Shown here in pieces: positions 2,259 to 16,004 of a DNA stretch of 20,000 nucleotides (position 1 is the stretch's first letter; each line of letters begins with the position of its first letter). This DNA comes from an uncultured virus (IMG/VR IMGVR_UViG_3300033888_000043). Lineage: Duplodnaviria; Heunggongvirae; Uroviricota; Caudoviricetes. The notes under the pieces are model-generated. The model ran no database searches. It was not told the DNA's origin and saw nothing but the letters and a program-made list of their open reading frames with translations. Made by a program: the position numbers and the translations under genes. Location of the stretch: IMG/VR virus record IMGVR_UViG_3300033888_000043, one strand, 5' to 3'.

Positions 2259-3487
2259 ACACACAGACGAACCGGAAGCCGATGGCTTCCGAACAAGACG
2301 GCGACCGTCGGAATGACGGCGCATGCGCCAGGTTAATGAGGTCCCTCGGAAGCGCCACTGGCCGCTTTACGGCACATCCTCCGAGCCAGACCGACTCGGA
2401 TTTCCGGGACGGCGAAACGCCGTTGATCCGTCTCAGGGCTCTGATAACACAGGAAAGCCTCGGGCGGATCCCTCCGAGCCCCTGGGCGGTCGATGACGAT
2501 GGACACGCGCATACCACCCGGAGCTTGGCCGACAAGTTGAAGTGCACCGAGAAGCACATCGCCAACACCTTGGCCGAAGCACTCGCCTGTGGCCTGTTTC
2601 GCCGGGCGACCGCGGCCGACGGAAAGCGTCTGGCTGGCGCCATTGGAGTGAACGCCGACAAGGTAAAGTCTCGCCGGCGCGAGGATCGCTCCCCTGTACA
2701 GGGGGGATTCGTTTTTTCTTCGCCTGAGGTTTTGGCCCAAATTCATAACTTCGACCCGCCGCGGCGCGTCGCCGCCGAGGAATGGGCCGTCAGCTTCAAC
2801 CGTTGGTCCCAGGATGTTTTGAACGCCGCGACGGATAAGGCCCGTAAAATCATCGCGGAAGAGAGGTACAGCGCCTTGCGGGCCATCGGGGTGAAACTAC
2901 CCCCGAAACAGATGGAGGTAATCTCTAACGACCGGGGTGTGCAGCTCGAGTTGACGCTCGAGCCGCCGGCGATTCCGGACGTGCTTGTCTCCCCTGTAAA
3001 GGGGAAGACGATGGCCGCTGGACAGGGGAACGGTTCTCCCCTTGTACAAGCGGGTTTTCCGTCTGTACAGGTGCGACATATAAGGAATAAGAATAAAGAA
3101 GAGGCCACCCCTGTTTCCGGGGCTATTTTTGATGTCAAAAAAGAAGAGTCCAGTCCCGTCCCTTGTGAGACGACGGGACCGGACTCTCTTTTAATGGAAA
3201 GGACCGAAGCACTCCGCGAATTGCTTCTGAGATGGCTTGGAGCCAAACTCTCACCCGACATCCCTGGACCTATCGCATTACACGGAATTCTGGCAGCGCT
3301 GGGAGACGCGGATTTTGCGCTCCTCACGCAGCGCATTCAGGCCCGCATGAGTTCAATCACGTCCTACGGCATGGTTATAAACCTGGCCCGGGACGCGGCG
3401 AAGCTGGCGCGGGCGCCCAAAACCGAAGCCGGGCCGAGCCTGCTCGACTTGAAACTACAAATGCAAAGAGAGGGAAAGCTGCGATGA
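2255..3487 (+). CDS. Probable phage replication initiator (N-terminal wHTH-like region, internal iterons)
   Basis: GGAGG RBS then GTG at 2255. HTH-like 'TTRSLADKLKCTEKHIANTLAEALACGLFRR'. Iteron-like palindromes and an AT-rich tract lie inside the gene, as in lambdoid O genes. Confidence 0.6.
   Translation: MNTQTNRKPMASEQDGDRRNDGACARLMRSLGSATGRFTAHPPSQTDSDFRDGETPLIRLRALITQESLGRIPPSPWAVDDDGHAHTTRSLADKLKCTEKHIANTLAEALACGLFRRATAADGKRLAGAIGVNADKVKSRRREDRSPVQGGFVFSSPEVLAQIHNFDPPRRVAAEEWAVSFNRWSQDVLNAATDKARKIIAEERYSALRAIGVKLPPKQMEVISNDRGVQLELTLEPPAIPDVLVSPVKGKTMAAGQGNGSPLVQAGFPSVQVRHIRNKNKEEATPVSGAIFDVKKEESSPVPCETTGPDSLLMERTEALRELLLRWLGAKLSPDIPGPIALHGILAALGDADFALLTQRIQARMSSITSYGMVINLARDAAKLARAPKTEAGPSLLDLKLQMQREGKLR
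2687..2724. repeat. Copy 1 of long-range repeat containing perfect palindrome CCCCTGTACAGGGG
   Basis: CGCTCCCCTGTACAGGGGGGATT (2687-2709) is identical to 15968-15990. Similarity continues (TTTTCTTCRCC). Confidence 0.9.
2989..3147. promoter_or_regulatory. Putative replication origin: palindromic iterons plus AT-rich tract
   Basis: CCCCTGTAAAGGGG (2991), CCGCTGGACAGGGG (3015), CCCTTGTACAAGCG (3039), CGTCTGTACAGGTG (3060), spaced 24/24/21 bp. Followed by A-rich CATATAAGGAATAAGAATAAAGAAGA and a degenerate fifth copy at about 3108. Confidence 0.65.
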
Positions 3488-7390: not shown

Positions 7391-7825
7391 ATGAAAGGAC
7401 TTGCTTTATCTATTCCGTCCTCGCGTCCGTCCTCGCGGACGGAAGTCTGGCGCCACCAGCGCCTCTACGATTACATCACCACGTTGGAGATGAGTTTCGC
7501 CGAACGGCAGCGGTTTAACGCCGCGCTCAACGACAATTTGACCGAGCGCCTGCTCTCGATCGAGAATCGGACCAGCGCGCCAATCACCGGCAACGCGCCG
7601 CCGGCGCCGGCAACCGATACCGCGCGGCACAGGCGGACCAAAGCGCAGCGCGCGAAGTTGAGCCAGGCCGCGACAGCCCGCTGGGCGAAACGGAGAGCCG
7701 AGGAAGCTGGTACGGCCGCGCCGCCCGCGGTTGAGACCGGAGGCCAGCCCGTGCCGGTGGCCGCTAAGACGCGCGCGCGCCGGAAGCCCGTCGAGAAGGC
7801 GATGAGCGCCGGCGGGGGGAACTAG
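7391..7825 (+). CDS. Basic putative nucleic-acid-binding protein
   Basis: GGGAG RBS and upstream TGTTACTAT extended -10 (7360-7368). Motif 'RRTKAQRAKLSQAATARWAKRR'. Confidence 0.7.
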   Translation: MKGLALSIPSSRPSSRTEVWRHQRLYDYITTLEMSFAERQRFNAALNDNLTERLLSIENRTSAPITGNAPPAPATDTARHRRTKAQRAKLSQAATARWAKRRAEEAGTAAPPAVETGGQPVPVAAKTRARRKPVEKAMSAGGGN

Positions 7826-8256: not shown

Positions 8257-8492
8257 GATGTTTGCCTCCCGCGAAAAGCGTGCACTGGACGGCGGTTTTC
8301 CGCGCGCCGTTGCGCGTCGCTTGGCTCCGTCCGACGCGCTATACTGGCTTCATATGCCGCTCCAGCCGGCCGCCCCGAATCCCCTGAAATCAGCGTTTTA
8401 CCTCTCCAGTTCGGCATTACAACAGATCTCGTTTTCGTATCCGCGCCCGCAACCCTTTTAGTTGCTTCAGCCAACTTTTTTGAGTTCGGCAT
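8253..8492 (-). CDS. Hypothetical protein
   Basis: TAATG coupling upstream and GTGA coupling downstream. Confidence 0.5.
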   Translation of the reverse strand: MPNSKKLAEATKRVAGADTKTRSVVMPNWRGKTLISGDSGRPAGAAYEASIARRTEPSDAQRRAENRRPVHAFRGRQTS

Positions 8493-8749
8493 TATGCGCG
8501 TTTTGCCGAACTCGCCGGCCTGGTTTCCGGGCCTGCTTGCTCCCCGCTTTTCCCCTGCCTTTTGGCCGCCGCGAACTCCCGCAACGCGGCTGCAGTCAGC
8601 TCCGCCAAGCGGATGCGCTCGACCGTCGCCTGCACCGAGACGCCGGCTTCGGAGCGGTCGAGCGTGGCCAGCAGCTCTTGCGCACGACGGGCATGTGCAG
8701 CCGCCGCGCGATCGAGGTCGAGCAACTCGCTGGTGGTCCAGGCCGTCAT
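8492..8749 (-). CDS. Hypothetical helical protein (MTAWTTSELLDLDRA...)
   Basis: ATGA-coupled to the upstream gene. Confidence 0.6.
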   Translation of the reverse strand: MTAWTTSELLDLDRAAAAHARRAQELLATLDRSEAGVSVQATVERIRLAELTAAALREFAAAKRQGKSGEQAGPETRPASSAKRA

Positions 8750-8949
8750 TTTGCCCACCGTGCGAGTGCAGCCGCGCGCGCCAGGGCGCTCCGCTTCTCG
8801 GCAGGAATAGCCCGACGCCCCTCGACAGCCGCGGCGCTGGCCTTTATCGCAATCGCCCGGCGCCGGCGCGGCGACAGCTTCAATGCTCTCGCTCTGCCGC
8901 CCATCCCGGCGATGCGCGTCAGGTGCTCCCGCAGTGTGATTTCTCCCAT
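8746..8949 (-). CDS. Small very basic protein with GGxARA/KLSPxRRxxIAxKA/ARW motifs
   Basis: 'GMGGRARALKLSPRRRRAIAIKAS...KRSALARAAALARWAK'. ATG at 8949 sits 7 nt downstream of an extended -10. Confidence 0.7.
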   Translation of the reverse strand: MGEITLREHLTRIAGMGGRARALKLSPRRRRAIAIKASAAAVEGRRAIPAEKRSALARAAALARWAK

Positions 8950-8956
8950 CGGCCAC

Positions 8957-8965
8957 ATCTTACCA
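8957..8965 (-). promoter_or_regulatory. Leftward extended -10 promoter (leaderless)
   Basis: TGG-TAAGAT on the minus strand, followed by 7 nt and then ATG. Confidence 0.5.
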
Positions 8966-9007
8966 TGAAAAGGTGAGTACCATATCCAAAATCAGTACGG
9001 AAAGTAC

Positions 9008-9036
9008 TTGCGTTACGTTTCGCGCCGTGGCATGAT
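9008..9036 (+). promoter_or_regulatory. Rightward sigma70-type promoter of the early operon
   Basis: TTGCGT-17 nt-CATGAT with a TG extension. Confidence 0.6.
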
Positions 9037-9047
9037 AGGCATGGAAG

Positions 9048-9089
9048 TTAAAAAGCCGCGAGGCTAAAAAGAGCGAAAGGAACAAGATG
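9048..9089 (+). repeat. Leader module copy 1 (AGCC-GCGA-GGCT hairpin, A-rich linker, GCGAAAGGA RBS)
   Basis: TTAAAAAGCCGCGAGGCTAAAAAGAGCGAAAGGAACAAGATG. Near-duplicate at 9554-9594. Confidence 0.8.
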
Positions 9090-9239
9090 AGCGACCCCAA
9101 ATCCCCCCGCGGCGGAAAGCGGCCCGGCGCCGGCCGCCCGCGCGAATTGGACCCTGTAACCTGCCCCCGTTGCGGGGCGAGCGTGGCGGCCAGCCAGATA
9201 CAGAAGCACGTCAAGGCGTGCCAAGGAGAATCACAATGA
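9087..9239 (+). CDS. 50-aa protein: AT-hook-like GGKRPGAGRP plus C2HC Zn finger
   Basis: MSDPKSPRGGKRPGAGRPRELDPVTCPRCGASVAASQIQKHVKACQGESQ. AAGGA RBS and ATGA coupling. Missed by the ORF track. Confidence 0.7.
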   Translation: MSDPKSPRGGKRPGAGRPRELDPVTCPRCGASVAASQIQKHVKACQGESQ

Positions 9240-9487
9240 AAAGCAGAATCACATACATGACGCGCGAAGAAGCGATCGAATTGCTGGACGCATACGACGC
9301 TGCCCCGGACGCACCCGAATCCTGCGACAACCTCTGCACTGTGGCTGATGCGCTGCCTGGGCAGCCGGACGACCGCCAGTACACCTCGGACGATCTCCGC
9401 GAAATGGTGGATTCCGCTTGGTGTCCGCTGTGCGGCATGATCCACCCCAAGGGCGATGGACCTGCCGGATATTCTTGCGAGGCGTGA
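9236..9487 (+). CDS. Acidic hypothetical protein with C-terminal CxxC..H motif
   Basis: AGGAG RBS, coupled start MKSRITYM... Confidence 0.65.
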   Translation: MKSRITYMTREEAIELLDAYDAAPDAPESCDNLCTVADALPGQPDDRQYTSDDLREMVDSAWCPLCGMIHPKGDGPAGYSCEA

Positions 9488-9549
9488 ATCGCAGACGACA
9501 CGCCCTCCGGGGCGTGTAATGCGGCAGCGCCGGTTCGAAGCCCGGCCAC
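9484..9549 (+). ncRNA. Twister self-cleaving ribozyme, type-P5 (circularly permuted)
   Basis: P2 CGCA(9490-93)/UGCG(9520-23). GA-CGA (9494-98). P1 hairpin CACGCCC-UCCG-GGGCGUG. Conserved UAA (9517-19). P4 GCCGG/CCGGC with loop U-UCG-AA-GC. Pseudoknot T1 UCG/CGA and T2 GC/GC. Short P5 GUG/CAC. Confidence 0.88.
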
Positions 9550-9553
9550 CACA

Positions 9554-9594
9554 TTGAAAAGCCGCGAGGCTCTAAAGCGCGAAAGGAAAATATG
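9554..9594 (+). repeat. Leader module copy 2
   Basis: TTGAAAAGCCGCGAGGCTCTAAAGCGCGAAAGGAAAATATG, directly 3' of the ribozyme. Confidence 0.8.
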
Positions 9595-9918
9595 ATTACC
9601 TGGGACCCCCCGACCGAAGAAGAAACCTACCCGATCGAGTTCCACGACTGCGAACTGCATGAGGAGCAGGAGTACTCCTGCCCCGAGTGCGGCTCCGCCA
9701 ACGTGGAGTTGCGCGAATACGATTTTGGTGCCGGCGAACAAACCGGCTACCGCGATGCCGGAGACCAGTATTACTGCCTGGAATGCTTGTCGCACGGCGC
9801 CGCCGAAGACGCCGGATGGAAAGCTGCCCCGCGCGTCGTCGCCATCCGGGCGCAGGCTGAGGACGAAATGGAGCGCGCCTTGCGCTACGGGCATGGCGAT
9901 TATCAGGAGGTGGCGTAA
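9592..9918 (+). CDS. Acidic Zn-ribbon protein
   Basis: CPECGS...YYCLEC. AAGGA RBS. Confidence 0.75.
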   Translation: MITWDPPTEEETYPIEFHDCELHEEQEYSCPECGSANVELREYDFGAGEQTGYRDAGDQYYCLECLSHGAAEDAGWKAAPRVVAIRAQAEDEMERALRYGHGDYQEVA

Positions 9919-9921
9919 GCC

Positions 9922-10137
9922 ATGCGCGAGAACGATCTGCCCAAGATGATCTGGGATATGGCCACAGCGATGAACGCTGCTATGGCCGCCACTGTGCGCC
10001 GCCTGCCCGAGGAGCCGGCCGAGGAACCGATCCGGGCGCGGCCGAACGATCTGCCCAAGATGATCTGGGATATGGCCACCCAGATGAACGTTGCTATGGC
10101 CGCCACCTCGAGGGCGGCAGAAAAGGAGACAAAGTAG
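9922..10137 (+). CDS. Small protein with internal tandem duplication
   Basis: NDLPKMIWDMATxMNxAMAAT occurs twice. AGGAGG upstream. Confidence 0.65.
   Translation: MRENDLPKMIWDMATAMNAAMAATVRRLPEEPAEEPIRARPNDLPKMIWDMATQMNVAMAATSRAAEKETK
9930..10106 (+). repeat. 63-bp direct repeat (4 mismatches), period 114 bp
   Basis: 9930-9992 versus 10044-10106; the first 36 nt are identical. Confidence 0.9.
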
Positions 10138-15936: not shown

Positions 15937-16004
15937 GGGCAAATTGTAAACCGGGCAAGATGTAAACCGCTCCCCTGTACAGGGGGGATTTACTTTTCTT
16001 CACC
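15937..16004. repeat. Tandem 16-bp repeats plus copy 2 of the replication-gene palindrome
   Basis: GGGCAAATTGTAAACC / GGGCAAGATGTAAACC (15937-15968), then CGCTCCCCTGTACAGGGGGGATT (15968-15990). Confidence 0.85.

Follow-up and report, generated by a model that had tools for sequence, protein, structure and literature searches.

Why a bacteriophage should carry the same short leader in front of two of its early genes, once behind a predicted promoter and once behind a self-cleaving ribozyme, is the question raised by a locus in the IMG/VR virus record IMGVR_UViG_3300033888_000043, which derives from an uncultured member of the Caudoviricetes. The window analyzed here is a stretch of 20,000 nucleotides (nt) of this record, which comprises 32,924 bases and is about 38% complete, and the region in question is a phage early control region. 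An earlier note on this DNA had drawn attention to a hairpin and ribosome-binding module shared by the two sites, and had proposed that it forms part of an undescribed cis-regulatory system working together with self-cleavage. The reading favored here, to which a probability of roughly 0.55 is assigned, is that the module is a leader and translation-initiation cassette, and that the ribozyme, a twister, splits the transcript and thereby gives the third early gene (open reading frame 3, ORF3) and the genes downstream of it a 5′-end near the cassette, uncoupled from ORF1 and ORF2.

Two copies of the leader module in the window

The module was identified by a repeat search as a 35-nt repeat on the + strand, at positions 9048–9082 and 9554–9588, with 89% identity between the copies. 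It consists of a hairpin (AGCC-GCGA-GGCU), two variable bases, AAAG, one variable base and GCGAAAGG, after which the start codon follows. In copy 1, the hairpin (9054–9065) is connected by an A-rich linker to GCGAAAGG (9073–9080), the Shine–Dalgarno (SD) sequence GAAAGG is located at 9075–9080, and the start codon is at 9087; in copy 2, which is of the consensus type, the hairpin is located at 9560–9571, GCGAAAGG at 9579–9586, the SD at 9581–9586 and the start codon at 9592. Between GCGAAAGGA and the ATG there are 5 nt in the first copy and 4 nt in the second, which corrects the five or six nucleotides given for this spacing previously. The pattern AAAAGCCGCGAGGCTNNAAAGNGCGAAAGGAA matches positions 9051–9082 and 9557–9588 and nowhere else in the window, none of 200 dinucleotide shuffles contains a match to this 32-nt degenerate pattern, and a third copy was not found in the whole 32,924-base record at up to three mismatches. 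The claim that the module occurs twice in the window is thus confirmed.

Copy 2 matches the consensus of the module family described below, and copy 1 is more deviant, with AA in its linker and an A at the variable base; the differences between the two copies are confined to positions that vary within the family. The GAAAGG of the module would presumably pair with CCUUUC near the 3′-end of the 16S rRNA, and this pairing accounts for part of the conservation of the module, although not for all of it.

A 156-nt contig from an RNA library (run X19, depth 3.2) joins position 9578 to position 9073, such that it passes through the 3′-part of the twister and leader copy 2 and then continues into the sequence downstream of copy 1. 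This contig could represent a tandem duplication variant, a product of recombination between the leaders, or template switching by reverse transcriptase.

Conservation of the module among phages of the Acidobacteriota

An exact-pattern scan of IMG/VR returned 30 stretches, nine of which carry the full module, while the rest look like chance GC-rich matches; a metagenome scan returned at least 120 stretches and added at least 25 distinct copies. All totals of module copies are lower bounds, and at least 38 distinct copies are represented, of which the window contributes 2, IMG/VR contigs contribute 8, metagenome contigs at least 25 and metagenome-assembled genomes (MAGs) 3. A collection of species-representative genomes yielded four matches, all of them in MAGs of Bryobacterales/Bryobacteraceae (Acidobacteriota), and each of these four MAGs (6–9 Mb) carries the module once. 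Since the module is present in only one of 401 sampled Bryobacterales genomes, it belongs to the phages or prophages of the Bryobacterales and not to the host. The complete or nearly complete relatives G001, G002, G006 and G009 also contain one copy each.

In an alignment of the distinct copies, 27 nt are almost invariant and the sequences on both sides are unrelated. Letters that had been left free by the search patterns are still constant, namely the AGC in the 5′ half of the stem, the T that follows GGC and the two A residues preceding AG in AAAG. Every copy is oriented with the downstream gene, the start codon of which lies 4–9 nt after the GG, and the promoters, operators and first genes found at the different copies are unrelated to one another, the first genes being highly diverse and encoding acidic proteins, Cys-rich proteins and others. 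Because the module is nearly invariant in at least 38 contexts with unrelated flanks, it is under selection beyond the 6-nt SD; its conservation in related phages therefore excludes the neutral duplication scar that the earlier note had named as the contrary outcome, and these copies substantiate a real, strand-specific cis element.

When positions 8950–9650 were searched with cmscan against Rfam 15 at E-values up to 10, the twister was the only match; no family was found at the module, and a comparison with the RAGATH motifs in Rfam 15, which had been suggested, gave no match. Scans of the relatives at the gathering thresholds of Rfam likewise revealed no family at the module. The module was not found described in the literature on twisters, RAGATH motifs and phage self-cleaving ribozymes, in which a motif sequence cannot be found by words. 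Within the phages of Acidobacteria, the module represents a cis element that is strongly conserved and as yet uncatalogued.

The genes located 3′ of ORF3 include those for a 367-amino-acid protein (phrog_10048) and a Gp157/Gam-like protein. A search for more distant relatives via the 367-amino-acid protein yielded seven loci, and the module is present in the G001 locus only, the other six (GC content 38–55%) having ordinary short leaders.

On the − strand of contig L104 (2510–2600), a hairpin unlike that of the module, AGGUC-ACGCG-GACCU, lies behind a strong promoter (TTGACA-17-TATAAT); UAAAGCGCGAAAGG and ATG come next, as in the module. This leader may be a diverged member of the module family, in which case it would be the sole case of a changed stem.

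The module as a promoter-proximal leader

Copy 1 is preceded on the + strand by a predicted early promoter of the sigma-70 type (9008–9036), in which TTGCGT (9008–9013) and CATGAT (9031–9036) are separated by 17 nt, and transcription would start near position 9043. The promoter is weak, scoring 7/12, which is below the threshold of the consensus promoter scan, and it is placed where the relatives have TTGACA-17/18-CATAAT/CATACT. Upstream of it lies an AT-rich divergent control region (8959–9007) with three AGTAC motifs (8976–8980, 8994–8998 and 9003–9007), the last of which forms a palindrome, AAGTACTT, that abuts the −35 box. Each relative has its own palindrome between its −35 and −10 boxes, and such differing palindromes are as expected for phages of different immunity specificities.

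Among the matches listed, 37 copies have enough upstream DNA for a promoter search, and a sigma-70-type promoter scoring at least 7/12 was identified within 65 nt upstream of 34 of them; a score of at least 8/12 was reached by 26 of the 37, compared with 21 of 370 control windows. In the listed copies, 7–32 nt (median 14.5 nt) separate the end of the −10 box from the hairpin. Because the module is promoter-proximal while the operators and the first genes vary, it is the standard leader of the first early gene, whichever operator and coding sequence accompany it. Contig L249 contains two copies at a distance of 600 nt, and a separate promoter precedes each of them; the two-leader layout is the same as in the phage studied here, with a second promoter in the place where the twister stands in the latter.

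The stretch directly upstream of the module in contig L202 (540–596) contains a 7-bp stem, ACGGAGA/UCUCCGU, around a T-loop-like hairpin, GGCGG-UUCAAUU-CCGCC. This element resembles an odd terminator or a minihelix of the acceptor and T arms of a tRNA; no tRNA was detected in it by ARAGORN, no Rfam match was obtained at E-values up to 1, and a 24-mer of it has no match in IMG/VR.

The twister ribozyme and the leader behind it

A type-P5 twister ribozyme was identified on the + strand at positions 9490–9545 with the Rfam model RF02684, at 56 bits (gathering threshold 37.6), over the full length of the model (positions 1–58 of 58) and with an E-value of 1.9e-09, or of 6.5e-11 on the 701-nt stretch 8950–9650. 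Together with the predicted promoter at 9008–9036, this match upholds the statement that the module occurs after both a promoter and a twister. Twisters are described as cutting at a U-A step beside P1, before the conserved AAUGC.GC stretch (PMC5408937). In the alignment to the model, GUGU-AAUGCGGC falls at the consensus ggU-AAUGCgGC, which places the predicted cut between U9517 and A9518. Copy 2 had been said to stand right behind the twister; the 3′-end of the twister at 9545 is 8 nt away from the repeat and 14 nt away from the hairpin of copy 2. A ribozyme-made 5′-end would not be located directly at the hairpin, since the predicted cut is 42 nt upstream of it. According to structure prediction, the 5′ cleavage product would end in an 8-bp P1 hairpin (ACACGCCC/GGGCGUGU), and the 5′ AAUG of the 3′ cleavage product would pair with CAUU at 9552–9555, followed by the module hairpin and an open SD in a predicted fold of low ensemble frequency.

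A ribozyme directly ahead of a ribosome site is an ordinary phage layout that has been described since 2011. Among the twister 3′-flanks from IMG/VR that were listed, 88 of 111 distinct flanks show, within 75 nt, an SD together with a start codon and an ORF that spans 40 codons or more, compared with 6 of 333 controls subjected to the same test. It has been reported that ribozymes flank prophage genes and probably process long transcripts, and that in the haloviruses HF1 and HF2 a hammerhead ribozyme is located 13 nt before the first start codon, with a mapped 5′-end (PMC3088659). The processing of polycistronic RNA by ribozymes has been suggested but is presented as unproven, and the roles of bacterial and phage self-cleaving ribozymes are described as still largely unknown (PMC6765202). 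The locus studied here resembles these ribozyme-punctuated phage and prophage operons in that an intergenic ribozyme immediately precedes the ribosome site of the following gene in an early operon (PMC3088659, PMC6765202), and differs from them in that the ribozyme is succeeded by the conserved leader that the clade uses at its primary promoter.

Copy 2 is the only module copy found behind a ribozyme among the matches listed. Only one ribozyme was detected in the early regions of the relatives (about 100 kb), namely a type II hammerhead in the module-bearing relative G005 (L103, 2308–2376; 43.5 bits), which is located between early-operon genes and is followed by an A-rich ribosome-binding site (RBS), AAAAAGGAAAG, and ATG, not by the module. 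In L379, an IMG/VR contig of 5,471 bases, six type-P5 twisters are arranged about 550 nt apart between positions 401 and 3083; behind every one of them lies a leader that contains a GAGGAGACATCT-type ribosome site, and at least two of these leaders share the same hairpin, CCCGG-UCGCAUU-CCGGG. L379 is a ribozyme-punctuated operon with a repeated leader, and a scan for this leader returned L379 only (one stretch, L494).

The presence of two leaders could also be explained by ordinary duplication, which we consider rather unlikely. Both copies would then be plain working ribosome-binding regions, the leader, ORF1 and ORF2 having been inserted by recombination at the conserved leader; the closeness of a leader to a 5′-end would be irrelevant, and the twister would be present only because phage twisters commonly precede ribosome sites. 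That twisters do so in 88 of the 111 listed flanks, whatever the leader, is in keeping with this explanation, as are the restriction of the differences between the copies to family-variable positions, the X19 contig, which shows that the copies can recombine or template-switch, and the unremarkable hairpin energy and accessibility test reported below. On the other hand, a module that is almost invariant amid unrelated flanks in at least 38 contexts points to selection beyond the SD, it occurs once per complete genome and in a promoter-proximal position in 34 of the 37 listed copies, despite the many operon genes with other ribosome sites, and L249, the other two-copy case, supplies a second promoter rather than an internal copy.

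Candidate binding proteins

The divergent gene at 8746–8958 (− strand) encodes a small basic protein of 70 amino acids with the motif GG.ARA.KLS..R..IA.KAA.ARW, which is a candidate regulator or binder. Members of its family are encoded divergently beside the module in many relatives; a hidden Markov model of the family detected them in 42 of the 62 loci that carry the module and in not one of the 431 further loci that were fetched, a co-occurrence that is confounded by common descent and flank length. The protein matches no Pfam, NCBIfam or PHROG family, and its Atlas matches are hypothetical proteins of Acidobacteriota and phages only. The motifs at its two termini are conserved, in contrast to the promoter operators, which vary from phage to phage, and the protein is therefore unlikely to be an operator-specific repressor.

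These features bear on another explanation, which in our estimation is improbable, namely that the module is an RNA operator bound by a phage protein, most plausibly this basic protein, via the hairpin and/or the two GCGA motifs by the SD. Binding would repress or activate the translation of the first early gene, and copy 2 would extend this control to ORF3 and the genes downstream. The association of the protein family with the module loci is what such an operator would lead one to expect; the protein, its motifs being conserved beside operators that vary, could recognize something conserved, and each module overlaps the SD and contains two GCGA motifs 13–14 nt apart. However, apart from the confounding noted above, 20 of the 62 module loci show no gene for the basic protein within the DNA covered, the protein matches no RNA-binding family or fold, and the candidate variant leaders in L104 and L064, if they are homologous at all, have other loops (ACGCG and GGUGAU, respectively). 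The proteins encoded at 9087–9239 and 7391–7825 had also been suggested as binders, and neither was found by tblastn in the fetched loci of relatives, the flanks of which are limited; this suggestion is accordingly not supported.

An immediate neighbor of the gene for the basic protein is a second minus-strand gene (8492–8749, MTAWTTSELLDL...), which starts at the stop codon of the former with an overlapping ATGA, and the product of which is 52% identical to a protein of the G001 locus.

Antitermination

It is very unlikely that the module acts as a nut- or put-like antitermination site, at which RNA polymerase would be made resistant to terminators by the hairpin of the nascent transcript, either alone or together with an N-like protein and Nus factors, with the two copies serving as nutL and nutR do in lambda. 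The resemblance is that early transcripts carry a small hairpin with a GNRA-like loop close to the promoter and that a second site comes after small early genes; in addition, GGCUCUAA in copy 2 matches six of the eight letters of the lambda boxA consensus, CGCUCUUA. In lambda nut, boxA lies 5′ of boxB, and boxB has a 5-bp stem with a pentaloop, compared with the 4-bp stem and GCGA tetraloop of the module. In the module, by contrast, nothing is conserved 5′ of the hairpin and the boxA-like letters lie 3′ of the stem, which reverses the order of the elements; moreover, the boxA-like GGCUCU depends on the variable linker, which reads CT, TT, TA, AT, CA, AA or CG. No N-like antiterminator was found among the 24 window ORFs in family scans, and the first genes differ between phages. 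Convincing terminators on the + strand were found only at 2689–2706 and 15970–15987, that is, outside the operon or at its end, and none between 9043 and 15970; the early operon therefore has no evident internal terminator. Furthermore, the module is fused to the SD and invariably adjoins a start codon, whereas nut sites require none, and the complete relatives carry one copy rather than one per early operon arm. The boxB/nut-like site contemplated in the earlier note is disfavored on all of these counts.

A terminator-like hairpin, CTCCCCTGTACAGGGGGG, with a displaced T-run occurs two or three times on the + strand of the window (2687–2716, 2989–3004 and 15968–15997), and one occurrence closes the early operon at about 15970. 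The top promoter-like site of the window, TTGACA-17-TATTCT (10/12), is located nearby on the − strand (16053–16025) and is directed into the end of the + strand operon.

Comparison with known leader elements

Elements that stabilize mRNAs at the 5′-end include the ompA 5′ hairpin of E. coli and the polypurine/SD stabilizer behind an RNase III site in the Bacillus phage SP82. In the early polycistronic mRNA of phage T7, RNase III cuts between the genes and 3′ hairpins are left on the upstream products. The likeness to such stabilizers is that a 5′-proximal hairpin and/or a strongly bound SD would protect the message; the differences are that a ribozyme would make the cut here and that the hairpin is mostly located 5–12 nt from the inferred 5′-end, beyond the protection rule of E. 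coli. Among the ideas put forward for the module in the earlier note, a 5′ stabilizer or leader working with self-cleavage is the best fit to the comparative pattern, its effect being something that we infer.

By analogy of arrangement, the closest functional analogue would be RiboJ, and the closest natural analogue the start-associated sequences (SAS) and extended SAS (ESAS) of the Cluster K mycobacteriophages. RiboJ, a synthetic insulator, consists of the sTRSV hammerhead ribozyme and a 23-nt hairpin before the RBS, and is reported to raise mRNA and protein levels (PMC6206723). Copy 2 is similar in that a self-cleaving ribozyme, a hairpin and an RBS follow one another in this order with the predicted cut upstream of the hairpin, and in that cleavage, as predicted here, would remove the upstream RNA and leave a fixed-sequence hairpin leader before the ribosome site (PMC6206723). 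It differs in being natural, in having a type-P5 twister instead of a hammerhead and a 12-nt instead of a 23-nt hairpin, and in its location between cistrons instead of after a promoter.

The SAS elements are reported from 93 sites across the non-structural arm in six Cluster K genomes, and the account of SAS and ESAS describes their function as unknown, with participation in the initiation of translation or the binding of a factor as proposals (PMC3203893). The module shares with them that it is clade-specific, asymmetric, contains an SD and is located a few nucleotides (3–7 in the case of SAS) before the start codons of unrelated genes, and it shares with ESAS an inverted repeat just upstream of the SD-containing sequence (PMC3203893). 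The SAS elements differ in having a 13-nt consensus of another sequence, GGGATAGGAGCCC, and in occurring in many copies per genome, compared with one or rarely two copies of the module by the early promoter, and no ribozyme figures in that account of them (PMC3203893). Judged from these features, the module would resemble SAS/ESAS in its working without being a member of that group.

A model for the two-leader early operon

The genes between the two leaders and the gene behind copy 2 differ in their relationships. ORF1 (9087–9239, + strand; 50 amino acids), which has an Arg-rich N-terminus and a zinc-ribbon-like CxxC motif, gave only weak sub-threshold matches to zinc-finger families of Pfam, and ORF2 (9236–9487, + strand; 83 amino acids), the stop codon of which ends 2 nt before the twister, matches no family; neither ORF has a tblastn counterpart in any fetched locus of a relative. 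ORF3 (9592–9918, + strand; 108 amino acids), which is Cys-rich and stands where the relatives have their first gene, has -QEVA at its C-terminus and is coupled to ORF4 through a GGAGGTGGCGTAA junction, and 10 of 27 complete first ORFs of the relatives likewise end in -EVA. The product of ORF3 shows weak similarity to that of the first gene of L249 (35% over 34 amino acids, pairwise E-value 4e-6), which was not detected by tblastn at 1e-3. In the near relative G001, in which the Gp157-like gene is 90% identical, there is a single, promoter-proximal module. Given this single module of G001, the junction and similarity of ORF3, and the absence of counterparts of ORF1 and ORF2 in the fetched loci, copy 2 and ORF3 represent the usual first-gene unit.

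In the model proposed here, the module would be the standard 5′ leader with which the early operon is equipped in a clade of temperate Bryobacterales (Acidobacteriota) phages, a translation-initiation cassette composed of a 4-bp hairpin capped by GCGA, a short A-rich single-stranded linker and a GAAAGG SD 4–9 nt before the start codon. The normal state would be one module per genome, starting 7–19 nt after the −10 box of an operator-controlled early promoter. In the phage studied here, ORF1 and ORF2 would be two extra small genes between the promoter and the usual first-gene slot, and the leader would therefore be present twice, with copy 1 serving ORF1 on the primary transcript and copy 2 serving ORF3 and all of the genes downstream. 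Cleavage by the twister at U9517/A9518, if it takes place in vivo, would release an ORF1–ORF2 message that ends in a 3′-terminal hairpin, and a second message that begins with a 5′-OH and the folded remnant of the ribozyme, followed by the standard leader. The ribozyme would thus be a stand-in for a promoter that, like the engineered RiboJ, provides the downstream operon with a defined 5′-end near its leader and uncouples it from ORF1 and ORF2, and the hairpin or the 5′-end may influence stability or translation. The comparative pattern fits this model, as the module is found in one promoter-proximal copy per genome and second copies come with a second promoter or a ribozyme.

Several observations weigh against this model. 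The module copies were retrieved with near-exact patterns, to which diverged versions are invisible, and the pattern of second copies rests on two or three internal copies in all; with so few, a dependence on the 5′-end is inseparable from the simple inheritance of a promoter–leader unit, combined with the general tendency of twisters to precede ribosome sites. A search of IMG/VR for a twister followed by the module (AAGCCCGG N5-30 GCCGCGAGGC) returned 76 stretches, all of which look like GC-rich coding matches and none of which is a true case. The modules of L270 and L202 have neither a recognizable promoter nor a ribozyme, L270 being a decayed prophage in a MAG whose first ORF also looks decayed. 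If transcription is assumed to start approximately 7 nt after the −10 box, the hairpin is located about 0–12 nt from the inferred primary start, compared with 42 nt from the predicted ribozyme-made end, and the promoter and ribozyme contexts of the leader are thus not equivalent in detail. RNA libraries (X16–X19, Logan contigs) yielded fragmentary pieces over parts of the region that are uninformative as to RNA ends and strand.

The structural evidence is of the same tendency. The hairpin, a 4-bp AGCC/GGCU stem with a GCGA loop, is weak (−6.1 kcal/mol in copy 1 and −5.7 kcal/mol in copy 2), and its fold energy is no better than that of shuffled sequences (z = −0.66 and +0.39); the significance of the module rests on the sequence repeat and not on fold energy. 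In an alignment of 41 copies, the stem is nearly invariant and neither the hairpin nor the pseudoknot gains covariation support; changes on both sides of the stem come only from two hand-picked, poorly aligned variants (L104 and L064), and because the stem hardly varies, covariation cannot support an RNA structure. The H-type pseudoknot that had been put forward as an alternative fold would comprise only 3 bp, one of them disrupted in three of the 38 distinct rows, and is not supported. The energy required to open the stretch from the SD to the AUG is 3.75 kcal/mol with the natural hairpin and 3.76 kcal/mol with a shuffled hairpin (n = 39, not significant), and the idea that the hairpin exposes the RBS is therefore without computational support.

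A further proposal, which we advance tentatively and hold as possible rather than probable, is that the leader works only near an RNA 5′-end, through stability, ribosome loading or binding of the basic protein, and that this end is supplied interchangeably by a promoter, by the twister or, possibly, by cleavage of the L202 minihelix by host RNases. If true, this would constitute a natural modular system composed of a 5′-end generator and a standard leader, and would give a phage twister a defined, testable biological role.

Other features of the early genes

A second conserved junction was observed in the window (9901–9924) and at the ends of first genes in relatives: many first genes terminate in Glu-Val-Ala-stop (GGAGGTNGCNTAA), within which the ribosome site of the second gene is embedded. 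ORF4 (9922–10137; 71 amino acids) contains a 63-nt direct repeat on the + strand (9930–9992 and 10044–10106; 94% identical), which encodes two copies of a NDLPKMIWDMAT.MN.AMAAT segment.

Implications

The ribozyme itself is an ordinary type-P5 twister, and the novelty of the locus lies in the identity of the leader behind it: the RNA 3′ of the twister is not an arbitrary ribosome site but the 27-nt leader of the early promoter of a whole phage clade. The general notion that ribozymes process polycistronic RNA thereby becomes a concrete prediction, namely that cleavage restores, in front of a standard leader, a 5′ context like that provided by a promoter. The module could also be a ready-made expression part for the Acidobacteria, which are abundant in soil and peat and poorly studied.

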